From Mycoplasmoides pneumoniae FH (lineage in GTDB: Bacteria > Bacillota_I > Bacilli_A > Mycoplasmatales > Mycoplasmoidaceae): 32,000 bases of DNA. The position numbers and the translations under genes were made by a program. Of this stretch, positions 3,974 through 21,467 are shown in pieces. The notes beneath the pieces were generated by a model. It ran no database searches. It was not told the DNA's origin and saw only the letters and a list, made by a program, of their open reading frames with translations. Positions within the stretch are counted from its first letter, which is position 1. Each line of letters begins with the position of its first letter. The stretch lies in NCBI RefSeq assembly GCF_001272835.1, contig NZ_CP010546.1:392809-424808 (forward strand). The letters run 5' to 3'.

Positions 3974-5023
3974 TTAGTTTTTCTGTAACGACCTAACGTA
4001 CTTCAAGGTAATTTGGTAAGCTAGTTTTAAATCCTTTTTCGCTAGTTTAACCAAAGCGGTAATATCAATGCCTTTAGCTCACTCTTCATGAACGCGCATT
4101 GGTTCTAACTTATCCGCTAAGTAGATAATCATGTCTAGTTGACTCATCTTTTGTGGTGGTACAGTGTGGTTTCAAATAGCGCTAAAAACAGCACTATTAT
4201 TTAAACCATACCAATGCTTTAAAATGTATGCACCTACATAGCTGTGTAACACCTTTCAGCTAGGGTAATCATTTACACCCGCTACTTTGGCTAATTTCTC
4301 TAATTGTGCTTGGGGTAGTTGCTTTGCTAGATCATGGTAAGCACCAGCAGTATAAGCCGTTTTACCATCGAGTTTATTTGCCACTGCTAAAGTTTTAGCT
4401 AACTGACCAACGCGCAAACAGTGTTGCATGCGCGGTTCATCTAACAGTGTTTGCAAAATGGTTTTTAGATAAATGTTGTGTTGGTGGATATAGTGCAACA
4501 CCTTAGCGGGAATTTGTCGAAATTTATGACTACCAAACATTTCACTCGATGCCAAATCTAAAGGACACTTACCCAACAGTCGGACGTTAAACTGTTGTAC
4601 CAATTGTTCATCAATTGGATAACCGAAACGTTCATAACAGACAAAACGACAAAGTTTTTGTAACTGCTCAATGTTATGTCATTTGGCCAACTCGCTTAAT
4701 TTATCACTGCCAATTAAAAAGTACAACTCAGCATTGGGAAAGCGCTGCTTAAAGTGTTGTACTGTATTGAACGAAAAACCGTTTTGCGCTTTAATGTCAA
4801 AGTTAGATACTGCCATCTGAGGCAATGCTTTTAGCGCAACCCTTAACATTGCTAAACGTGCTTGATTAGATGCTTTAATCGGTGATTTAAAAAAGGCTTT
4901 AGCAGTTGGTACAAAGTAAAGCTTTTGTGCTTTAATGGCTTGTACAGCACGCTTAGCAATGTAGATATGCGCTTGGTGGAGGGGATCAAATGCACCACCA
5001 AAGATCACTATTTTTTTTCTCAA
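3974..5023 (-). CDS. nadD: Nicotinate-nucleotide adenylyltransferase (NadD) fused to a YqeK-type HD-domain hydrolase (349 aa)
   Basis: The N-terminus IVIFGGAFDPLHQAH is the nucleotidyltransferase (H/T)xxH motif. The frame continues through TGA at 4679, 4256, 4172 and 4079 into an HD domain (RMQHCLRV...GAYHDLAK). The start is TTG at 5023, with TAA three codons upstream. The stop is TAA 3974-3976. Confidence 0.85.
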
Positions 5024-5077
5024 AGAGCTTAAATTGTTTAATTCTAACTAAAATAATCCTGATAGCTACAGCCATTT

Positions 5078-6958
5078 GTGCTGTCCAGGTCCATGGTAAA
5101 AAAGGAACTAGAAATTTACAACCTCTATACTTTTCAAATAGACCTCGATAAAAAGCTTTTATTTGAAAAAGCAGATAATCAACAGAATTACTCTAAGATT
5201 AGAGCTCGTTATTTTAAAAATTCTGCACGTAATCAACAAGCAGTTTTTCTCAATAAAAACCTGATTAAAAACACTTTTAATAAGGCACTGTTAAACTTCT
5301 CGGATTTTTTGAGTGGTAGTGGTGTAGAGAGCATTTTTAAGCAGGTCATTGATGATCAACCTGAAGTTTTAAACTACCTCAAACAGGTCAAAAAGGAAGA
5401 TAGTTGCGATGGTCACAGCGAAGCGTCACAGTTAGTATTTAATGTAGTCATTAACCCTAAAAATACGCTCGCTAACTTCTTTGAGGAATTAACCATTTAC
5501 CTCCACTTTAATGAAGAGAACAGCACAGTTGTCGGAAGCTTTTCGTTAAAGTGAAACATTAAGCGTGCCGACCTGTTTTCAGAAACGAAAAATATTGCCA
5601 TTAACAATCTGATTCACACCTTCTGTAAAAACAACTTAAACGAGGTTAGCTTTATCCAGATCATTAAATGCTTTGCTAAAACACTGATTAATAAGCAAGG
5701 ACAAATTGTGTTGGAGAGTTGTGCCTTTAAGCAAAAATGACAAAACATCGTGGAGCAAAAGTACCCTTTTTCCACGATTCACAAAAACTTAAAGATTGTC
5801 AATTCTGATTTCTTTGATGCTTTTTTTGTGATCTTGTTGTTAATTTGTCACCTCAATAATAACTTGTTGTGGTTGTGTGAAAAAACTGAGCACTTTGAAT
5901 GAAAGCTCAACAGCAAGATTAGTAATTTCAAAGAAGATAACACTGAAGTGTACTTGTCGAAAATGCTGTTGTTTTTAAAGGACTGGTACTTTGAAAACCA
6001 AGCCGTTACTAATGAAGACATTGAAAAGGTTGATGAAGTGGAAGACATTGGTAAGTTAGTGGAAAAATACAGCGCTAATCAACCACAAAAGTTGTCTTCT
6101 AATTCAACCGTTTATGTATTTGAACCAGACAAAAAACAGTGCTTTTTAAAGAATGATGACTTTTTCAACACTAACGAAGCTAAGCTGTTGTTTTTAATCA
6201 CAATGCAACCCAATGTTTTTGGTCTGGATGATACTGCCATTGCCAATGACTTAAACCTAAGGGAAATTGGTGACTTCTTTAAGGAAATTGACTTTACTGA
6301 CAGCGATGTGCTCAATGACTTTCAACAACAAAAAGAAACTTTGTTAGTACGGCGTACCTTTAACCAACTGTTGTTTATGAACAGTAATACCGATGTTTTG
6401 AGTATTGTTAACAATAAGTTCAAATCAGCGATCCATAACATTGTCTGAACGATTACTTACAGTAAGGCAATTATGCTCAAGGCATTTGATTACTCCAAGA
6501 TCTTTGAGCAAAACCGCACTAACGATCCTTCTCTCTTGCGTTCTAACCTCAACAGCATTAACCGGCTGCGGTATCTCAGTGAATACTTCCGTACCGCTTC
6601 AGTTAAGTATGACCAGCTGTACACCAAGGTAAAGGAGTACATGCAATTAGATCAGTTCTTAGTAGACATGATTAACCAGGTCAACCATGAAGATGAGATC
6701 TTTGGTAAATACAAGGAACGGGTTTATTTGAGTTTGGGAATAGTTACTGCTGTTGTCTTTGGTATTATTGAGTTCTTTAACTGTGTTTGAACGGTTTTAA
6801 CAGTCAGTCAACAAACGGCTGAAAAAAGTTTAGCTGATCCAAGAAACACGGTAATTATTGGTATTGGTACTATCCTTGTTTTAACACTGTTAATTACCAT
6901 TTTAACCTTTATGACAAGACGGCTTTACCTGTTTGAATTTAACAAGAAGCATAAATAA
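5078..6958 (+). CDS. Conserved hypothetical protein with a large soluble N-terminal region and a C-terminal 2-TM hairpin (about 626 aa; MG241/MPN337-like from memory)
   Basis: I translated a single frame by hand from 5078 to TAA 6956-6958, reading through TGA at 5552, 5738, 5900, 6446 and 6788. It joins track ORFs 5078, 5948 and 6473. The start is GTG 5078 or ATG 5093. The C-terminus is GIVTAVVFGIIEFFNCVW...VIIGIGTILVLTLLITILTF followed by a basic tail. Confidence 0.75.
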
Positions 6959-9536: not shown

Positions 9537-11126
9537 ATGGAACATTTAAATCAGGAACAGAAAGCTGCTGTTACTTGTGATAACGGTGTTAACGTGGTGT
9601 ATTCCGGTGCTGGCACGGGTAAAACAACCGTTATTGCTGAACGCTTTGCTTACTTAGTCAATGAAAAAGGCGTTAATCCTCAAAGTATTTTGGCCTTTAC
9701 CTTCACTGATAAGGCAGCGAGTGAAATGCGCCAACGCATTATTAAGTTAATTCCACAAAAAAGCTTGCAGGATCTGCACATCTATACCTTTCACAGTTTT
9801 GCCAACAGGTTTTTGCAAAAACATGGCAAAAGTGACTTTGCCATCTTGAGAGATTCTAACCGCTTCTTTAGTGATTATGAAATGGGTGATCAACTACAAA
9901 CAGTGGTGGAAATTTATAAAAACAAAGTAGTTGATTTAGAACTTGACAACCTAGAGTATAACTCCGCTTTTAGAGATGCTTGTACAGATACTTTTAACGA
10001 GGATTTTAGTACCATCTCCAATGGTCAGTTTCGTAAACGGGCTGCGACTGCTTTACGGGCTTACCAGAACTATTTAATTACCAATAACCTATTTGATTTT
10101 AGCGATTTAATTATTGAAACTTGCCACCTTTTAAAAGGTAATAGTGAATTGTTGCAAGCATTTACCGAAAGTGTGCATTATATCTTAGTAGATGAATTTC
10201 AAGACACTAACCTAGCCCAGTACGAATTGGTAAAGTTACTAGCTACAACTCATCCTAATCTCTTTTTGGTGGGTGATAGCAACCAGATGATTTACGGTTG
10301 GCGGGGTGCTGTTGTAGAGATCTTTGAACTTTTAAAAAATGATTTTCAAACAGTCAAAGAGTTTTATACCACCCAAAACTACCGCAGCAGCCAAGCGGTG
10401 TTAGCAGTAGCGAATGATGTACTAACCGCAATTGCTAGAAAAGAGAGGAAAGCGCTCGTGTTGTTGCACTCTAGCATTGATTCTAAAGCTGTACCGGTAC
10501 ACTATAAGGCCAATTCTTTGAAAAACCAAGACCAGTGGATTATTTACCAAATGAAACAGTTGCATTTAAACAATGGTGTACCTTATGATCAGATGGCGGT
10601 GTTATTTCGTAAGAATAAACACCTTGACGCTTTTAGTCAAACAGTGCTGGAAGATGGTGATTTACCTTTAGCTAAATTAAACCTTTTAACAATTCACGCT
10701 GCCAAGGGTTTGGAATTTGAGGCAGTATTTGTTTATGGCTTGGTTGAACGCGCTTTTCCTAGTTTGCACTGGGATGGAAGTGATAAGCACAAGTTACTAG
10801 AAGAAATGAAACTGTTTTACGTAGCGATTACTCGTGCTAAACAGTTTTTATTTTTAGTTTCTGTTAGTGTGGAAAGTTTCAATGCGTATTATGAGCCGTC
10901 ACGCTTTTTAAAACTAATTGAAAAGGAACATTTGCAAACACAAAAGGCAGCGTACTTTAAAGAACAATTAAAGACACAGCCAAAACCAGTTAATTTGTAT
11001 ACAGAGACAGAAAACGCGGAAAACTTACAAAAAGCCACTGACTCTAAAAAGTGAATTATTTTAGGGGCGATTCTTTTGATAATTGTGATTATTACCGCTG
11101 TGTTAAAACTTTTTGTTGAAAATTAA
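9537..11126 (+). CDS. UvrD/PcrA-like SF1 helicase, short form without a 2B domain, with a C-terminal hydrophobic tail (529 aa)
   Basis: Motifs [49 protein letters not shown] and YVAITRAK. After TGA 11052 the frame continues as WIILGAILLIIVIITAVLKLFVEN to TAA 11124-11126. Confidence 0.85.
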
Positions 11127-11188: not shown

Positions 11189-13336
11189 ATGGCATTTAAC
11201 ATTAGCACTCAACTCAATAAGGAACAACGAGCCGCTGTTACCTGTGGTAAGGGTGTCAACATTGTCTATTCTGGTGCTGGTACTGGTAAGACCACCATTA
11301 TTTCCCAACGCTTTGCTTATTTATTTAACCAAAAGCGAATTAATCCTAGCAACATTTTGGCGTTAACCTATACAAGGAAAGCGGCGAGTGAGATGAAGCA
11401 GCGGATTTTGGAGCTGTTACCGGAAAAGTATCATAAGGATGTCAACATTTACACCTTCCACAGCTTTTGTAGCCGTTTTTTACGTGAAGAAGGGCAAAAA
11501 AACTTTGTGATTGATGATGACTTAAGTAACTTTCTAAAAGACTTTCTCAAAGAGAGTGAACTAAAAAGTCAAAAGGTATTACAAATTATTGACGGTTTTA
11601 AAAACGCTTACTTTGATTTTGATACCAACAGCTTAAAGGATGATGAAAGATTGGTCGAGTTGTGTGAGTTTCATTTAGACCCCCAAGAGCGTAACTTTCA
11701 ACTTTTCAAAGAAACCGCTATTGCTGCTTTTGTTGAATATGAAAAAGGTAAACAACAGAACAATAAAATTGACTTTGCTGATTTATTAATTAAAACTTGC
11801 ACTTTACTGAGCAAAGATCACAAATTATTGCGCAAGTGATCGAAAAAATTTCAGTACATTTTAGGTGATGAGTTTCAAGATACCAACCAAATTCAGTATG
11901 AACTAATTAAGATGTTGGCCAGCCATCACCAAAACCTTTTTTTAGTGGGTGACAATAACCAGATGATTTACCGCTGAAGGGGCGCGGTTAGTGACATTAT
12001 TGATTCTTTAAAAAGTGATTTTAAGGTAAGACCCGAAAACGAGTTTTACATTACCCAAAACTACCGTTGTGATCAGAACATCTTAACGGTGGCAAACTCG
12101 ATTCTAGGCACCATTTATGCCAAAGAAAACCAACCTGATTCAACTAAAGGCTTTCTTTTTTCTGCCATTAAATCAAACCGGCTTCCAGTTTATTTCCAAG
12201 CCTCTTCAGTTGAAGGCCAACATTCTTGAATTATCAATAAGATTAAGAATTTACATAAAAACCATGGCATTCAATACAAAGACATGGCTATTTTGTTTCG
12301 CACCAACAGAAACATGGATTCGATGACTGAAGCGCTTGAAGCTGATGGCAGTATTCCCCTTAAGCAAAATAAGGGTTTTTTTAAACAGTTAGAGACTTTT
12401 AAAAAGGTATTAGTGGCACTCATAACTAGGTCAAACTATGACATTAAACTAGCTTTAAAAAGTTTGCGGGTTTGACCTAATGTTTTAAATAAAAGTCTCA
12501 CTGTAAACGAGCAAGTGAATTTAGATAAAATCTTGCAAAACTTAGAGCAAGCCATTTTTTTAGATGAGCATACTCGGGGTGAGTTGACGGAAGCTGCTAA
12601 AGTTTTTACGCGTTTAATTAAGTTTGTTGAAGAACAACAGTTTGAAGCTTTATTAGCCTTTACTTTTGAGGCATTAAATACTGATCAGTTTGTCTGCAAC
12701 TTTATTTTTAGAACATTGCAAAAACTGCAAACTGAAAATAAAAACTTCACCATTACCGATTTTATTAACGAGTTAAGGTTCCAACAAGATGAGTTAAAGC
12801 AGTCCAAAGATAATGTGATTAATTTAATTACAGTGCACTCTGCTAAGGGCTTGGAATTTGAAGCTGTCTTTATTTATGGGATCAATCAAGACAACTTTCC
12901 GCTCAAATCGAAGAATCAAATAATAGATCTACAAAGAGAATTGGATGAACTACGCCTTTTTTATGTGGCCTTGACAAGGGCAAAGAAATACTTGTTTTTA
13001 CTTTCAGTTTATCAAATGAGTGGTGAAATTATTTACCCCTCTAAATTCATTCGTTTTATCAATAAAGAGGATAGACTAGAAATTGCCACCATTAACCATA
13101 AAGTTCACCAGGATGATGAATTCTTCGATTCTTCTAAAACAGAAGACTATCAAAAAAAGTATTTAACAGAAAATACGGATTTTGTTAATGGTGACTCTGT
13201 TAGCCACCGTACTTATGGTAAGGGCGTTGTTGTTGAAGTTAGAGAAGATGCAGTCTGTGTCGCTTTTAAAAACAGTAAGTACGGACAGAGGTGAATTGTT
13301 AAAAATCACCGTGATTTGGTGAAGGCTGTGTATTAG
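11189..13336 (+). CDS. pcrA: PcrA/UvrD-type ATP-dependent DNA helicase (715 aa)
   Basis: One frame joins track ORFs 11189, 12284 and 12515 through TGA at 11837, 11975, 12228, 12473 and 13292. Motifs [30 protein letters not shown] (W = TGA), [19 protein letters not shown] and YVALTRAK. The C-terminus is a PcrA-like [17 protein letters not shown]. The stop is TAG 13334-13336. Confidence 0.9.
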
Positions 13337-13476: not shown

Positions 13477-15108
13477 ATGGAAAAGAAACGTACTGAACAA
13501 CGTAATGGCGTTGAAAAGAAGATTTGAGAAATAGCTGATAAATTAAGGGGAACCATTGATGGATGGGACTTTAAAAGCTATGTTTTAATTGGTCTTTTTT
13601 ACCGTTTTCTTTCCGAAAACCTATGCAAATATTTTAACGATTCTGAAAGAAGGAATAATCCTGATTTTAGTTACGAAAATTTAACAGATGATTATGAAGC
13701 AATTGATGCATTAAAAGATGCTGCCATTGCAAGTAAAGGCTTTTTTATTAAGCCATCTCAGCTTTTTCAAAATGTTGTTAAAAGTATTCGTGAAAATAAA
13801 AATAACGAAGATCTAAATACAACTTTGCGCGATATCTTCGATGATATTGAAAAGTCTACTGAACTAGGTGATGGAAGAAGTAAAGAATCCTTTAAAGGTC
13901 TTTTCAAAGACTTTAATGTTTCTGAGGTTAAGTTAGGTTCTACTTTAACGATCCGAACAGAGAAATTAAAAGAACTTTTAACAAGCATTGACACAATGGA
14001 GCTCGATGAATTTGAGAAAAATTCTATCGATGCATTTGGTGATGCATATGAGTTTTTAATTTCCATGTATGCACAAAATGCTGGAAAAAGTGGGGGTGAG
14101 TTTTTTACACCCCAAGATGTATCTGAACTTCTCGCTAGAATTGCGATTGGCAAAAAGGACACCGTTGATGATGTTTATGACATGGCTTGTGGCAGTGGTT
14201 CTTTACTTTTACAAGTAATTAAAGTTTTAGGTAAAGAAAAAACTTCACTGGTTAGCTATTACGGTCAGGAAATAAACCACACAACTTACAACCTTTGTCG
14301 GATGAATATGATTCTCCACAATATTGATTACGCTAATTTCAATATTATTAACGCTGATACTTTAACAACGAAGGAGTGGGAGAAGCATTACGTAAATTGC
14401 TCAAATGAAAATGGGTTTGAAGTTGTGGTTTCCAATCCACCATATTCCATTAGTTGAGCTGGTGATAAAAAATCCAATTTAGTAAGTGACGTTCGTTTTA
14501 AAGATGCAGGGACATTGGCACCTAATTCAAAAGCTGATTTAGCTTTTGTTTTACATGCTCTATATGTATTAGGTCAAGAAGGTACAGCAGCAATTGTTTG
14601 TTTCCCTGGAATCTTGTACCGTGAAGGTAAAGAGCAAACCATTAGAAAATACCTAGTTGATCAAAACTTTGTTGATGCAGTGATCCAATTACCAAGTAAT
14701 CTTTTTAGCACAACATCAATCGCTACTTCAATTCTTGTTCTCAAGAAAAATCGTGATAAAAAAGATCCCATTTTCTTCATTGATGGTTCTAACGAATTTG
14801 TTAGAGAAAAGAAGAATAACCGCTTAAGTCCAAAAAATATTGAAAAGATTGTTGATTGCTTTAATAGCAAAAAAGAAGAAGCTAATTTTGCAAAGGCGGT
14901 TGAAAGGGACAAAATTAGGGAATCTAACTACGACCTTACAGTAGGTAAATACGTAAACTCAGAGGCTGAAAAGGAAGAATTAGATATTAAGGTTTTGAAT
15001 CACTCTATTGATGAAATAGTAGATAAACAAAAAGATCTAAGAACTAAAATTAAGGATATTATTCAGGATATCAAAGTAGATTTTGACAACATTGATATTA
15101 ATAACTAG
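13477..15108 (+). CDS. hsdM: Type I restriction-modification system methyltransferase subunit HsdM (543 aa)
   Basis: ATG 13477. The N-terminus IWEIADKLRGTIDGWDFKSYVLIGLFYRFLSENL is typical of HsdM. The AdoMet motif is DMACGSGSLL and the catalytic NPPY lies at 14434-14445. TGA codons fall at 13525 and 14455. The stop is TAG 15106-15108. Confidence 0.95.
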
Positions 15109-15177: not shown

Positions 15178-16299
15178 GTGCAAATTAAAACTTACAAAAT
15201 CAAGGATATTTGCGAGATCTCAAGAGGCAAAGCAATTACTAAAAAATACATTAAGGATAATCCTGGTCAATATCCGGTTTATTCATCTACTACTGCTAAT
15301 AACGGTGAAATTGGCAGAATAAAGGATTACGATCTTGATGGCGAATACGTTACCTGAACTACAGATGGTATATATGCAGGTACTGTTTTTTATCGTAACG
15401 AAAAGTTTAATGCTTCTCAGCACTGCGGTGTTTTAAAACTTAAAAATAACGAAATAAGTGCTAAGTTTTTAACTTATGCATTAGGAATGGAGGCTCCTAA
15501 ATTTGTTAATAATGCTTGTCCTATTCCTAACCTCAATTTATCAAGAACTGAGGAAATTGAATTAGATTTCCCACCCTTGCAAATTCAGCAGAAAATTGCT
15601 ACTATCTTAGATACTTTTACCGAGCTAAGCGCCGAGCTAAGAGAGCGAAAGAAGCAGTATGCCTTCTATCGCGATTATCTGCTCAACCAAGAAAATATCC
15701 GAAAAATTTACGGAGCAAATATACCTTTCGAAACTTTTCAAGTAAAGGATATTTGTGAAATTAGAAGAGGTCGAGCGATAACTAAAGCGTATATTAGGAA
15801 TAATCCTGGAGAAAATCCAGTTTATTCCGCAGCTACCACAAATGATGGTGAGTTAGGACGTATTAAAGATTGCGATTTTGATGGTGAATACATCACTTGA
15901 ACTACAAATGGTTATGCTGGAGTAGTTTTTTATCGTAATGGCAAGTTTAATGCATCACAAGATTGCGGTGTTTTAAAGGTTAAAAATAAAAAAATCTGCA
16001 CCAAATTCCTATCCTTTTTATTAAAGATAGAAGCACCAAAATTCGTTCATAATCTAGCTTCAAGACCAAAACTAAGCCAAAAAGTAATGGCTGAAATTGA
16101 ACTCTCTTTTCCACCTCTAGAAATTCAAGAAAAGATTGCTGATATTCTCTTTGCCTTTGAAAAACTTTGCAATGATTTAGTAGAAGGTATTCCTGCCGAA
16201 ATTGAATTGCGTAAAAAGCAATTGGATTACTATCAGAATTTCTTATTTAATTGAGTGCAAGAACAAAAGAAGAACTCACTTTCTACTAATCTAAATTAA
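15178..16299 (+). CDS. hsdS: Type I R-M specificity subunit HsdS, Type IC-like, made of two homologous halves (373 aa)
   Basis: The start is GTG 15178, the first start codon after TAA 15157. The frame passes through TGA at 15355, 15898 and 16252 to TAA 16297-16299. Each half has a target-recognition domain (KDICEI.RG.AITK...GEY.TWTT) followed by a conserved helix (FPPLQIQQKIATILDTFTEL / FPPLEIQEKIADILFAFEKL and RKKQYAFYRDYLL / RKKQLDYYQNFLF). Confidence 0.9.
15622..15645 (+). repeat. Imperfect 12-nt tandem (gagctaagcgcc / gagctaagagag) in the central conserved helix of hsdS
   Basis: Read directly from the sequence. It encodes ELSA-ELRE within TELSAELRERKKQY, at the position of the TAEL-type repeats of Type IC HsdS proteins. 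Confidence 0.6.
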
Positions 16300-16521: not shown

Positions 16522-17172
16522 ATGCCTAAAATTATTTCTAAACGAGAATTCAACATTCTTAGAAAAACAAAAGAAGAAATCTTTTCTCAAATTGTTTACA
16601 CTAAGAAGAGAAACGGTCTGCACAAGGCTGCCAAAGAATATTACTTCAAGGACAAAGACTTTACAATAATAGAAGATCAACAGGATCGACCTGATAAACC
16701 TGAGGAACTGGACACACCGGATATTCCAAAGCCACCAAAACCTCCCAAGGGTCCTGATCAACCCGAGGAACCAGGCCAACCAGGTGGTCCCGATGATCCT
16801 AATTCAGGAAATAAAAAGATGCCAAAGCCAGACGAATTTGTAACCCACAGACAACTTCAAGAATTTAAGAAGGATCTTTTAGTGGAACTTCACGAAATCT
16901 TTCCTACAAAACCTGAATTAAAACGGGTTGAAGAAAAAGTTGATGTTCTGTTTGAACTTCAAAAAGCTCAGGGTGAACAAATAAGAATCCAAGGTGAACA
17001 AATCAAAGAACTGAAAGTGGAGCAAAAAGCCCAGGGCGAAACCCTACAGCTAATCTTGCAAACACTACAAAAGATGAACGATCGTCTGGATAAGATCGAA
17101 GGTAAAATGGACAAAATGGAAAGTAGAATGGATAAAATGGAAACTCGCTTAGACAAACTAGAGTCCAAATAA
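16522..17172 (+). CDS. DUF16-family coiled-coil protein (216 aa; MPN344-like from memory)
   Basis: Uninterrupted ORF with no TGA codons. It has a basic N-terminus, a Pro-rich segment (16687-16800, [39 protein letters not shown]), then heptad coiled coil ending [28 protein letters not shown]. Confidence 0.8.
17086..17169 (+). repeat. Four tandem 21-nt (heptad) units at the 3' end of the DUF16 gene
   Basis: ctggataagatcgaaggtaaa / atggacaaaatggaaagtaga / atggataaaatggaaactcgc / ttagacaaactagagtccaaa, read directly. Confidence 0.7.
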
Positions 17173-17413: not shown

Positions 17414-20400
17414 ATGGAAAAACTGGATTTTTTAAAGATAAAAAAAGATTGAACTGTACCAGTTGAATATCAACCTAGTGATCAAAAAATAGAGTGACAA
17501 TCTTCAAGAAAAATAGTTCAAAATTTAAAAAACAAACTTTTATCCTTGGGTTATGAAGATATTAGCAAGGGTTTTGACGAAATTCCTAAATTCTTAGAGA
17601 AAAATTTAAGAAATCAACTTAGCTTATTAAACGATTTTCAATTTTCCGATAGAGAGTGATCAGATTTTTTAAATAACTTTATTTTTCAATTAGGTGACGG
17701 CAAAAAAGGAAGAATTGAAAAAATCCAAAAAGGTGAGCTTTATGAACTAAAAGATGAAAATGACAGAATCATTAAAAATGTTCGTTTAGTAAATAAAAGA
17801 GAACTATCTAAAAATAAATTGCAATTTATTTGCCAAGATGAAAGGAATGAGGTTATTATATTCATCAATGGCCTTCCTTTTGTTTTAATAAGTATCTTTG
17901 AATTTAATTCACCACTTCAATCAAGCTTTCAAGCATGAAAAATTATTAATTCCCTAATAGATGACGAAAAATTTAAAAAGTTTTCCGATTACTTGCACCT
18001 TTTTGTTTGAACAAACGCAAAGGAAACAAGATACTGCTCAATAACAACATGGGATAACCTTAAAGAAAAAAGGAAATCAGTAAGAGGATTGTCAAACTCT
18101 TCTTTTAAAAGTTTGATGAGATGAAGTGACTCTGAAAACAATAAAATCGACTATATTGAAGACTTTGCAACTCATTTTTTAAACAAAAACGCCTTATTAA
18201 ACGTTATTTGTAAATTTTGTGTGTTCAGGTCAAATAGTGATCTTTGAGTTATGCGTCCTTACCAAATATGCGCAACTGAAAGAATTTTAGAAAAAATAAA
18301 AGAAGACAATAGGAACAGTAAAAACTCTAAAAATGCAAGTAAGGGCGGCTGTATTTGACACTCAACCGGAAGTGGTAAAACACTAACTTCTTTTAAAGCT
18401 GTTCAATTGGCTAGTGAAATAGACTTTGTTGATAAAGTCCTTTTCGTTGTTGACAGGAAAGACTTGGACAACCAAACGATCGAAGAATATGAAAAGTTTC
18501 AAGCGGGTTCTGTTAGCGAAACTGAGAACACAAATGATCTTAAAGAAAAGATATTAGACGATAGTACCGCCACACGTGCAATTGTTACTACTATTCATAA
18601 ACTTAAGAGGTTAATAGATCAGAGAAGTAAGCTTAAAGACGAAGATCTTAAAAAGAAAAACATCGTTCTTATATTCGATGAATGTCATCGATCTCAATTT
18701 GGAAAAATGAAACAAGAAATCGATGAGTTTTTTTAAAATGGGATTTTATTTGGCTTTACTGGAACGCCTATTTTTGAAAGTGAATATTCAGACAAGAATC
18801 AAACTCTAGAGAACCAGCAAAAGACAACTAGAAGTAAATTTGGTGAAATTATTCATACCTATACAATGTCTGATGCTTTGGATGACGAAAATGTACTTTG
18901 TTTTAGGTATAAGAGTTATTACATTAAAGATGATGGAAGCCGAATTGATACATTAAATGAAGAGAGAATTAAGCATATTGTTGATTTCACTTTAGATAAA
19001 TATCTAGATGCAACACAAAATACTCCGAAATTTGATAATTTTGAAAATCCTGTAAAAGAAGGGTTTAATTCGATTTTTGCCTGTGAGAGTAAAGAAGCAG
19101 CAATCGAATACTATAAAGAATTCAAAAAACAAATTGAACAAAAGAAGCTACCAATTAAAATTGCAAGCATTATAGCGCAAACGAAGGTAGTGATGAACAA
19201 GAAATTAGTGTAAAAGGTCTTGATAAATCCTCAAAGAGTTTTCTAAGTCAAATCATTTCTGATTACAACGAAACCTTTCAAACAAACTTTAGCATTAACA
19301 ATCTAGATGAATATTACAAAAATGTTTCTGATAGATTAAAGCCAAAAAAGACAAAAAATTTAGATGGTGAAAATAAAAACACAAATGGCTGAGAAATCGA
19401 CATTTTAATTGTTGTTAACATGTTCTTAACTGGTTTTGATGCACCAACCCTTAATACACTTTGAGTAGATAAGAATTTAAGCGAACACACTTTAATCCAA
19501 GCTTTTTCAAGAACTAATAGATGTTTTGGAGAAACTAAAAAATTCGGAAACATTTTTAGCTTTAGAGATATAAGAGAAAACTTCGATCAAGCTCTAAAAA
19601 TGTACGCAGACAAGCGTGGTCTTAAGGATATAAGATCCAACATGGTTATGCGAGAATTTGAGGAAGTTTTTGAAAAATTCAAAGATTGAACCGAGAAAAT
19701 AAAACAAAAATACCCAAATCCAGATGAAATTCTTAATTTAGAAAAAGAAGAAAAGTGAGATTTTTCTGATCTTTTTGGTGAATTTCTTGGAGATTACAGA
19801 ACTGTAAAAAGCTATCATGAATTCGACAAAGACAACCCTTATCTTCCAAGTGATGAATTCAATAAATATTTTGCTGCGTTTTCTCAAATTCAAGAAGAAA
19901 TAAGGAAAGAAAAGGCAGAGAAAAAAGCGCTAGAAGTACAAGAAGAAGATTTATCAAATGAAGTACGAAAAGAACCGCAAATCTTTTCTTGAGAATATGG
20001 TGAGGGTATTCAAGCCAATTTAGATTACATTTTTCATCTAATTAAGGATCTCTATAATTGTGATAATGAGCAAGATAGACAAAAAGTATTAGACAAAATT
20101 AAGACTGCAATTAGAACAAATCCAGAGATTCAAGTGAATGAAGATATTCTTAATGAATTTATAGAGGACTTAGGGAAGTCGTTCGAGAAAGAAAAACTTG
20201 AAGAAGTTTGAAAAACAGAAGGTAAATTACGTGAGTGTTTAAAGGATTTCTGTAAAAAGAAGGAAGAAAGCAATAAGAAAAAAATTATTAATGACTTTTT
20301 AGTTAAAGGAGTTTTCCTTGTTGAATGAGTAGCTGATAAACAACTAAATACAGCTAAAAAGAAAGGTGAATACAGTCCTTCTTGATCTGATACAGAAAAA

Positions 20401-20550
20401 TTAATTTGAAAAGAAAAATCAACCAATCTTCCAACTATGACAGAAAAAGATGAAGATGGCAATTTCAAGTGAAGAAAATTAATTACAGATATCTCGGAAG
20501 CTTTTAAAAATCACTTCGAAAGATTTATCCGCTTTGTTGAAATTAGATAG
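17414..20550 (+). pseudogene. hsdR: Type I R-M restriction subunit HsdR, disrupted by an in-frame TAA and a 1-nt frameshift (intact length would be about 1045 aa)
   Basis: Fragment 1 (17414..18736) has MRPYQ, HSTGSGKTLT and FDECHRSQ, then EFF-TAA. The same frame continues as NGILFGFTGTPIF (helicase motif III) to TAA 19211-19213. The next frame is open from 19159 and carries ANEGSDEQ...DYNETFQTNFS...[29 protein letters not shown]...QAFSRTNR through to TAG 20548-20550. I translated all three segments by hand and found only TGA (Trp) codons inside them. Confidence 0.9.
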
Positions 20551-20595
20551 TTTTAAATTATTATCTATAAATCAGGTTTTCAACCATAGATTACT

Positions 20596-20730
20596 ATGGA
20601 AAAGAAAAATAAAAAAAATACTGCAACCGTTCCCACCAAAGAACAATTGGATGGCATGTTTAAATCTCTTGAAAAAGAAGAGAACTATGATGTCTTTGTT
20701 CAAGTCATAAAAGCTTTAGGTAAGATGTAG
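20596..20730 (+). CDS. Small ORF (44 aa), candidate partner or antitoxin of the downstream Doc-like gene
   Basis: It runs from ATG 20596 to TAG 20728-20730 and encodes MEKKNKKNTATVPTKEQLDGMFKSLEKEENYDVFVQVIKALGKM. The stop lies 2 nt before GTG 20733. I recognise no homology, so support comes only from position and coupling. Confidence 0.3.
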   Translation: MEKKNKKNTATVPTKEQLDGMFKSLEKEENYDVFVQVIKALGKM

Positions 20731-20732
20731 TT

Positions 20733-21467
20733 GTGCGTGAAATAAACGTTTATTATTTAAGCAACGACTCAAAAAGTGATAAAGACGATATCGATTATTT
20801 AATAGAAGAACTTTTAGTTGAAGGTTCTCGTTTTAAAAATAGTCTTGTTACGTTTTTAGAAAAAGAAAAAGACTGCCAATCTTGCATTTGTTTATTTAAA
20901 TCTAAGCTTTCTTCTTCATTCGAAATAAGAGTCAAATTTAATGAATTAAATTTAGATGCAAGTGATGAAAAAACTAAGGAATTTTTAAGATACATAGTTA
21001 GTAAATCAATAAACAATGCAAAATTCCTATCTTCTGAAGACTTTGATGACAAAAAAGAAGACGAAATTCTAAGCATCATTGAGAATACCTTTAATAGTTA
21101 TTGCTACAAAAGCGATTTACTAAGTCCAAGTTTGTATTGTAAAGAAGGCCGCTTGAACATAATTGATTTAATTAACGATATTTTTTGCAAGGTTTTAACT
21201 TTTCATAAATTGTCGAACGGAAATAAAAGACTAGCTACAGCCTTATTAGTTAATTTTCTTTACACTTTTGGATATTATTTCAAATGAACAATACCTCTTA
21301 AAAAAGAGGAATACTTTAAGTATGCTCACATGATCAAAAACTTTGTAGTTAGTTTTGAAGAACATAAAAGAGAAAACAGGGATGAATTTCTAGCAAAGCA
21401 AACAAAGAAATTTATCATGGACAACATCCTTTTAGCTCTCAATTTTTGAGAGACTAAATTAAATTAG
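20733..21467 (+). CDS. Fic/DOC-fold protein with a Doc-type active-site motif (244 aa)
   Basis: GTG 20733. The frame continues through TGA 21285 and 21447 to TAG 21465-21467. Motif HKLSNGNKRLATALLVNFLYTFG at 21204 onward matches the Doc signature Hx(F/L)x(D/N)(A/G)NKRxA (phage P1 Doc: HIFNDANKRTALNSALLFLRRNG). It does not match the AMPylating Fic motif HxFx(D/E)GNGR. Confidence 0.7.

Follow-up and report, generated by a model that had tools for sequence, protein, structure and literature searches.

We describe two adjacent genes in the window, the 32,000-nucleotide (nt) stretch of Mycoplasmoides pneumoniae DNA analysed here: an open reading frame (ORF) of 44 amino acids (aa) and, directly behind it, an ORF of 244 aa with a Doc-like product. 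We found that the two probably constitute a chromosomal two-gene module of the toxin-antitoxin (TA) type at the 3′ end of the degenerate M. pneumoniae Type I restriction-modification (R-M) locus. The locus has been described since 2015 and the core finding is not new. Our additions are modest: a Mollicutes family of two-domain proteins, a minimal and position-flexible partner, the defence context of the family and the frequencies of the alleles.

M. pneumoniae uses genetic code 4, in which TGA encodes Trp. The large ORF (20733-21467) begins with GTG and contains two in-frame TGA codons (W186 and W239); with table 4 it is 244 aa long, and an ORF list made with table 11 stops it at 184 aa. The relatives described below support the GTG start, since they begin there too, with M-[KR]-x-I-x-[IV]-[FY]-Y. 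The small ORF (20596-20730) ends with a TAG stop at 20728-20730, 2 nt short of the GTG, and is read in another frame than the large ORF. The original prediction, made from the letters alone, had placed the end of a 44-aa ORF 2 nt before the Doc-like start and the active-site motif at nt 21204, and we confirmed both. The module has the following features, all on the + strand.

20537..20564, + strand: promoter-like site TTGAAA-16 nt-TATTAT (consensus scan, 10/12 match)
20596..20730, + strand: small ORF, published as MPN347a, 'putative antitoxin' (ORF calls, hidden Markov model (HMM), published mass spectrometry)
20733..21467, + strand: Doc-family protein, intact allele, 244 aa (ORF calls, profiles, AlphaFold 2 (AF2) model)
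20733..20957, + strand: N-terminal alpha/beta domain, about aa 1-75 (alignment, AF2 model)
20922..20924, + strand: polymorphic codon 64, here GAA (Glu) (alignment to U00089.2)
20967..21434, + strand: all-helical Doc/Fic-type catalytic domain, about aa 79-234 (profiles, AF2 model)
21204..21230, + strand: active-site motif H158-K-L-S-N-G-N-K-R166, the Doc-type NKR variant (sequence)

Sequence relationships of the 244-aa protein

We found that the 244-aa protein aligns to the NCBIfam model TIGR01550 (DOC_P1) over aa 104-205 with E=2.4e-8. A sequence search of the PDB with the same protein gave no match. Word-indexed protein searches returned the M. pneumoniae cluster only and, with a profile, six proteins. 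HMMER, run exhaustively against 1.84 billion representatives, yielded 85 relatives, mostly of 200-250 aa and aligned nearly end to end. The family alignment comprises 35 members, and the related loci (given as L numbers below) were retrieved with a seven-member alignment. Residues H158, G163, N164, K165, R166 and G180 are invariant across the 35 members, all of which match DOC_P1 at E<1e-3 (best 1.2e-17) and 21 of which match Pfam Fic. The family profile also matched the Fic domains of Bartonella Bep proteins (E=9.8e-6) and the structure of E. faecalis Doc, 9VZC (E=0.0067).

The Doc consensus HXFX(D/N)(A/G)NKR has Lys in place of the second Gly of the Fic motif (PMC13034048). We found that HKLSNGNKR, of the kinase type HxLxNGNKR, fits this consensus, with Leu at the Phe position. 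Taken alone the 244-aa protein scores below the curated cut-off for DOC_P1; matches to that profile run through all 35 aligned members, and therefore we regard the protein as belonging to a divergent Doc branch rather than as a non-member. Judged by sequence, it is a divergent member of the Doc branch of the Fic fold, an assignment that holds at family level, and the Doc-like family is confined to Mollicutes. The Doc subtype of the Fic fold had been proposed in the original prediction, and the DOC_P1 match, its recurrence in 35/35 relatives and the invariant motif residues bear this out. In the profile search proposed with it, the DOC_P1 and Pfam Fic scores of this protein alone both came out under their cut-offs.

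Two-domain model

The AF2 model of the 244-aa protein has a predicted local distance difference test score (pLDDT) of 92.2 and a predicted template modelling score (pTM) of 0.91. Its N-terminal domain consists of strands at residues 2-8, 39-44, 50-55 and 63-71 and a helix at 16-28, and the catalytic region, about aa 79-234, is all-helical. The best interpretable Foldseek matches were the Fic domains of Bep proteins and VbhT, at probabilities of 0.6-0.9, and these matches were weak (E of at least 0.1). For the N-terminal domain no significant Foldseek match was found in the PDB or BFVD. Throughout the Mollicutes family the roughly 150 N-terminal residues form a conserved alpha/beta domain that matches no known fold. 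The original prediction could not assign some 155 residues preceding the motif and took them as unusual next to P1 Doc; they are a feature of the family and no peculiarity of this gene.

A small partner peptide

We built an HMM from the upstream peptides of other species, leaving out the window peptide, and found that it retrieves the 44-aa ORF at E=1.1e-8, as the sole significant non-training match among 4,534 six-frame segments. This indicates that the small ORF is not there merely by chance and settles in its favour the question, raised with the original prediction, of whether it is conserved in relatives. An ORF of 37-48 aa lies directly before the Doc-like gene in L004 (66 aa there when read from an earlier ATG), L005, L006, L016, L017, L018, L020 and L023, for a total of nine upstream copies across eight loci, with two in tandem in L018. 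The gaps between partner and Doc-like gene at these eight other loci are 0-21 nt, with the exception of L017 (233 nt). The peptide family ends in ...V-I-K-A-L-G-K-x, and the C-terminal likeness is seen on comparing the window peptide (...SLEKEENYDVFVQVIKALGKM) with that of L017 (...NLEKEEGYENFVEVIKALGKK). The ratio of nonsynonymous to synonymous substitution (dN/dS) of the small ORF was 0.3-1.6 on 28 codons with synonymous sites saturated.

Neither the peptide nor a nine-member alignment of it had a match in Pfam, NCBIfam, PADLOC, PHROGs or the PDB; therefore we do not regard it as a Phd/YefM or RelB protein. Peptides of 37-48 aa are too short for a separate DNA-binding domain. Hundreds of assemblies list the 44-aa product, under the name 'hypothetical protein'. 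We conclude that the 44-aa gene is a real, conserved and translated partner unrelated to Phd.

The tandem partner genes of L018 (1595-1717 and 2001-2123) encode 40 aa each, differ by 5 substitutions and accompany one Doc-like gene. This arrangement has the appearance of a duplicated antitoxin gene.

Variable position of the partner

The partner is not always upstream. We found an ORF of 39-61 aa directly downstream of the Doc-like gene in L009, L010, L011, L014, L021 and L022, and in the proteins P0043 and P0049 a C-terminal extension replaces the separate partner. Full-length HMMs gave no link between the upstream, downstream and fused peptides (E about 1). A position weight matrix was trained solely on the C-terminal 10 residues of the upstream peptides. 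All nine held-out downstream or fused C-termini scored within the top 0.02-3.6% of 4,843 background C-termini, and eight of the nine within the top 0.4% (Fisher p about 3e-16), a result open to selection bias in that the test peptides were picked by adjacency and the motif had been seen beforehand. The common element is hydrophobic-x-x-L-[G/A/S]-K-x at the extreme C-terminus. A partner was found at 17 of 19 loci, the exceptions being L007 and the pseudogenised L008.

At L007 (Mycoplasma leonicaptivi) two divergent Doc-like paralogs (2071-2826, − strand; 5686-6360, + strand) flank an 854-aa gene, and neither has a recognisable partner peptide. At L012 the gene for the fused-partner protein P0049 (3694-4482) lies tail-to-tail with a gene (4495-6282) for a CARDS-toxin-like ADP-ribosyltransferase of 595 aa, which matches Pfam Pertussis_S1 and CARDS_D3.

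These data bear on how the partner is to be understood. The ~40-aa partner may, as a tentative reading, represent an undescribed minimal class of Doc antitoxin: essentially one neutralising helix with the shared element at its end and without a DNA-binding domain, encoded upstream of, downstream of or fused to a Mollicutes-only two-domain Doc kinase, the whole being a component of the restriction/defence islands of minimal bacteria and possibly an abortive-infection back-up for R-M.

We also asked if the 44-aa and 244-aa ORFs could be the halves of one frameshifted ancestral gene, as they are 2 nt apart in different frames and next to an hsdR gene broken by frameshifts. Relatives, however, begin at the M-[KR]-x-I... 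position of the 244-aa ORF, at nine upstream and six downstream loci the peptide has an ORF to itself, complete with start and stop, and the fusions join the C-terminus of the enzyme rather than its N-terminus. On these three grounds we rejected a single ancestral gene as extremely improbable.

A different reading of the same family is that it comprises non-toxic regulatory Fic/Doc enzymes, in which the N-terminal domain recognises a specific target and the peptide is a cofactor or regulatory subunit. The conserved N-terminal domain, not present in classical Doc, the lack of classical antitoxin features in the peptide and the fusion of the partner motif in P0043 and P0049, which recalls the intramolecular regulation of housekeeping Fic proteins, all agree with this. 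However, the motif is of the kinase-toxin type, and the gene is patchy in distribution, often broken and linked to defence islands, traits that characterise selfish or defence modules rather than housekeeping regulators. We therefore consider a regulatory enzyme unlikely.

Published expression and transposon data

Lluch-Senar et al. 2015 described a "putative toxin-antitoxin operon" at this locus in strain M129 (PMC4332154, Fig S4, Table S2). The small ORF is MPN347a (M129 415161-415295), listed as 'New ORF (putative antitoxin)' (PMC4332154). Its product was detected by mass spectrometry in M129 and RNA-seq data showed an operon (PMC4332154), made up of MPN347a, the 'HP?' ORF (MPN347b), which went undetected, and MPN348a, labelled 'the putative doc toxin' (PMC4332154). 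Subtracting 394565 from an M129 coordinate gives the window coordinate, which we checked on the start codon of MPN348 (416070 = 21505); the published MPN347a cloning primers match the window from 20596 and up to 20730 (PMC4332154). A two-gene TA layout had been proposed from the window alone, with a look-up of the 44-aa product in proteomics data as one check. The M129 peptide detection answers the second (PMC4332154), and together with the conservation of the small ORF beside relatives and its 'putative antitoxin' listing it upholds the first (PMC4332154).

The published transcription start site (TSS) of MPN347a, 415133, corresponds to window position 20568, 4 nt past the TATTAT element (PMC4332154 Table S2). 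Promoter-like sites found by consensus scan across the region were in no excess over shuffled sequence, and what alone speaks for the site at 20537..20564 is that its position agrees with this start. On the − strand we noted a terminator-like hairpin (11-bp stem and T-run) at 20624-20649, within the small ORF, and promoter-like sites at 21442-21414 and 21301-21274, opposite the toxin gene.

An antisense RNA to the toxin gene, ncMPN322, has been reported (PMC4332154) and corresponds to window 20910-21465. It could provide a second, RNA-level control of the toxin.

In the published transposon data, insertions in MPN347a fell from 46 to 1 as the read threshold was raised from 7 to 41, and the call changed from NE to E (PMC4332154). 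Over the same thresholds, insertions in the toxin fragment MPN348a went from 196 to 63 and those in MPN347 from 584 to 167 (PMC4332154). The MPN347a insertions are thus almost exclusively of low abundance, which suggests that mutants without the small protein arise yet stay rare. This pattern fits what is expected where loss of an antitoxin is costly. Burgos et al. 2020 reported MPN347b, the N-terminal fragment of the toxin, and 'a putative TA system' among the Lon targets of M129 (PMC7737663). GenBank names the 244-aa protein 'type II toxin-antitoxin system death-on-curing family toxin'.

Alleles of the toxin gene

Alignment to U00089.2 revealed that the window has G at 20922 where M129 has T, which changes GAA (Glu64) to a TAA stop (E64*). 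The TAA in M129 versus GAA in FH had been remarked on earlier (PMC4332154 Fig S4) and was found independently here. We found the 63-aa nonsense product on 424 contigs and intact 244-aa variants on 146 (80 + 66); the nonsense allele thus accounts for about three quarters of the M. pneumoniae contigs. The window protein is identical to the FH-type ADK87115.1. M129 keeps a 111-aa C-terminal fragment (MPN348a) with the motif and its own TSS, and the Doc-like genes of L004 and L008 are broken too. The neighbouring hsdR (MPN345-347) has been published as nonfunctional (PMC4537597). From the presence of E64* in most contigs we conclude that M. pneumoniae can do without the module, which is decaying together with hsdR.

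This raises the alternative that the module is a decaying remnant without current function, one that entered along with the AT-rich R-M island and is now disappearing; the intact allele may then be inactive as well, and the peptide would persist as harmless or otherwise used. The excess of nonsense over intact alleles, with E64* in M129 itself, the fragments of the neighbouring hsdR, the broken genes of L004 and L008 and the scores of the 244-aa protein under curated family cut-offs are what such a remnant would be expected to show. Yet the intact allele keeps every invariant catalytic residue and its AF2 model is confident over the whole protein. Moreover, the peptide is translated, and insertion mutants are depleted even in M129, where the 111-aa motif fragment with its own TSS remains. 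We consider a functionless remnant possible but doubtful.

Genomic setting of the module and its relatives

The genes 5′ of the module belong to the Type I R-M locus, with a DUF16 gene among them, as listed here.

13477-15108, + strand: hsdM, intact, 543 aa
15178-16299, + strand: hsdS, intact, 373 aa, same Type I locus as hsdM
16522-17172: DUF16 protein, 216 aa, between hsdS and hsdR
17414-18736 (440 aa), 18866-19213 (115 aa) and 19420-20550 (376 aa), + strand: hsdR in three ORFs (tblastn against the intact 1061-aa HsdR of L016)

The last hsdR fragment (19420-20550) matches Pfam EcoR124_C (E=2e-38). The genes for MTHFS, ymdB and plsY lie 3′ of the Doc-like gene. The GC content is 0.27-0.32 over 17-22 kb and 0.36-0.43 in the flanks. 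The original prediction had appended the module 3′ to a decayed Type I R-M locus, in the same AT-rich block, and the three hsdR ORFs and the low GC content agree with this.

The locus also differs between strains in ways that do not involve the module. The N-terminal hsdR fragment is a single 440-aa ORF here (17414-18736, compared with 2681-4004 of L002), whereas M129 has 69 + 206 aa and another strain 305 aa; since this fragment is whole, hsdR is less decayed here than in the reference, as is the Doc gene. HsdS has 373 aa here versus 433 aa in M129 and 417 or 413 aa elsewhere, differences that are multiples of 4 aa. The 12-nt unit CCGAGCTAAGCG occurs once, at 15620-15631, and there is no tandem array in the window; hsdS length variation is a published tandem-repeat (AELS) polymorphism (PMC4537597; PMC8836594). 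The DUF16 protein, kept in all M. pneumoniae strains compared, has a Pro-rich segment and a heptad-like C-terminal repeat, and TRF reports a 21-nt repeat at 17087-17143. Just 5′ of the hsd locus are tandem UvrD/PcrA-like helicase paralogs, 9537-11126 (529 aa) and 11189-13336 (715 aa), with nearly identical N-termini.

We surveyed restriction and defence genes within about 6 kb at the 15 loci with usable flanks, and found such genes nearby at 11 of them. Type I genes are present at 4/15: the window, L005 (hsdR), L009 (intact hsdM/S/R, in Mycoplasma sp. 6243) and L016 (hsdR). Others are listed here.

L008: D12 methyltransferase and HNH
L011, L022: GmrSD
L006: AAA_15/21
L010: Schlafen/AlbA_2
L018: HNH_2 and DUF4011 helicase
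L019: Type III R-M and AAA_13/AAA_15

The exceptions include L014, where the gene lies between rpoB and ruvX, and L012, where it lies beside the CARDS-like toxin gene. The survey supports residence of the family in defence islands. The idea that homologs might co-occur with hsd loci across Mollicutes was thus borne out at 4/15 loci for Type I genes, and not at the others, which have other or no restriction or defence genes.

The Type I neighbourhood suggests a more specific role, that of a restriction-linked abortive infection system or guardian of R-M. The peptide and/or the Hsd complex would restrain the Doc-like kinase, which would be freed once a phage or mobile element disables restriction and would shut down translation as PrrC does. 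In the window, and independently in the three relatives L009, L016 and L005, the Doc-like gene adjoins genes of a Type I system, and other relatives lie beside Type II or III R-M, GmrSD, HNH or AAA_13/15/21 genes. PrrC in the EcoprrI locus is a precedent (PMC12707154), and there are weak PADLOC matches to candidate defence families (PDC-S23, E=0.0027). However, Type I genes are found at only 4/15 informative loci. Nor is the gene arranged in one way with respect to hsd, being on the same strand, convergent or upstream, and this speaks against a fixed coupling within an operon. Housekeeping settings also occur in the family, for example at L014 with its rpoB and ruvX neighbours; no M. pneumoniae phage is known, and hsdR is dead. 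A specific functional tie to Type I R-M in the style of the PrrC guardian is possible but weakly supported, and overall we hold this role to be rather doubtful. It would extend the two-gene TA reading and does not exclude it.

Proposed action of the module and points against it

If the two genes act as a TA module, then by analogy with the P1 and E. faecalis Doc proteins the large protein would phosphorylate EF-Tu with ATP and so halt translation. In solved Phd complexes the C-terminal ~28-residue helix of Phd suffices for neutralisation (PMC13034048). By the same analogy the small peptide would neutralise the toxin through a C-terminal helix docked on the Doc domain, and Lon proteolysis would release it. 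The module would most likely persist as an addiction or abortive-infection element of the restriction/defence island.

Several points weigh against a TA module. Toxicity, kinase activity, EF-Tu targeting and binding of the peptide to the toxin are put forward by analogy across the family. The DOC_P1 score of the 244-aa protein alone is 34.2 bits, under the curated cut-off of 38.65, and Pfam Fic (PF02661) gives 15.2 bits over aa 109-176 (E=0.04), under a cut-off of 24. The toxin is broken in most isolates, and thus the module has no required function in M. pneumoniae. The peptide is too short to hold a type II DNA-binding domain, so that autoregulation, if any, works otherwise. When the natural fusion P0049 was modelled, the fused tail was of moderate confidence only (pLDDT 48-77). 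MPN347a was called 'essential' from a target of 108 bp, and its insertion pattern could also stem from polar effects of the outward promoter on the transposon.

Comparison with known systems

The published M129 locus (PMC4332154, PMC7737663) has the same genes, the same Doc label and, after the offset, the same coordinates. In contrast to M129, the window holds the intact FH-type allele as a single 244-aa ORF, and the M129 papers (PMC4332154, PMC7737663) omit the Mollicutes-wide family, the N-terminal domain, the variable partner position and the defence-island context.

With Phd-Doc of P1 and its E. faecalis counterpart (9VZC) the present module shares the Doc-type motif and a small upstream gene tightly coupled to the toxin. 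Classical Doc, however, has ~126-139 aa and is without the N-terminal alpha/beta domain of the family described here, and the ~40-aa partner found here lacks a DNA-binding domain and shows no similarity to Phd/YefM that could be detected.

Outside Doc, the best structural and profile matches are to class I Fic toxins with small helical antitoxins (VbhT-VbhA, FicT-FicA and Bep1-BiaA) and to class II/III Fic enzymes, whose inhibitory helix is built in; the class I pairs also resemble the present system in having a very small partner. Class I-III Fic enzymes have GNGR, AMPylation activity and an inhibitory helix (S/T)xxxE(G/N), whereas the motif here is NKR. The peptide segment ...S-L-E-K-E-E-N-Y... 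fits (S/T)xxxE(G/N) only after a one-residue shift, which we take as a lead and not as evidence. In the Fic classification of Engel et al. 2012 the inhibitory element is reportedly either a protein of its own or built into the enzyme, to which the upstream, downstream and fused partners found here are a parallel.

PrrC of the EcoprrI Type IC R-M locus is likewise a translation-targeting toxin in or beside hsd genes (PMC12707154), where translation targeting by the present protein would be by analogy. It is an unrelated protein with another activity and is restrained by the Hsd complex rather than by a peptide. The association with R-M is looser here than for PrrC, at 4/15 loci and in variable orientation.

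TA752/3, a Fic/RelB pair of M. mycoides subsp. capri, is a functional Fic-fold toxin module in a mycoplasma (PMC8562856). It consists of an AMPylase-type Fic of 190 aa and a RelB-family antitoxin of 90 aa and belongs to another family than the module described here (PMC8562856). The view that TA modules are scarce in mycoplasmas, repeated in the original prediction, is dated, as functional TA systems have been shown in these organisms (PMC8562856).

Implications

The additions at family level are modest, and their significance would need experiments. The FH-type intact toxin and the M129-type E64* form a natural on/off allele pair that could be used to test a Doc kinase in a near-minimal cell. 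The very short, position-flexible partner peptide is a possible simple model of Fic/Doc inhibition. The intact toxin is also a candidate kill-switch part for a mycoplasma chassis, as has been proposed for other mycoplasma toxins (PMC8562856). For the biology of the group, our data suggest that even genome-reduced Mollicutes retain putative toxin modules within restriction/defence islands.

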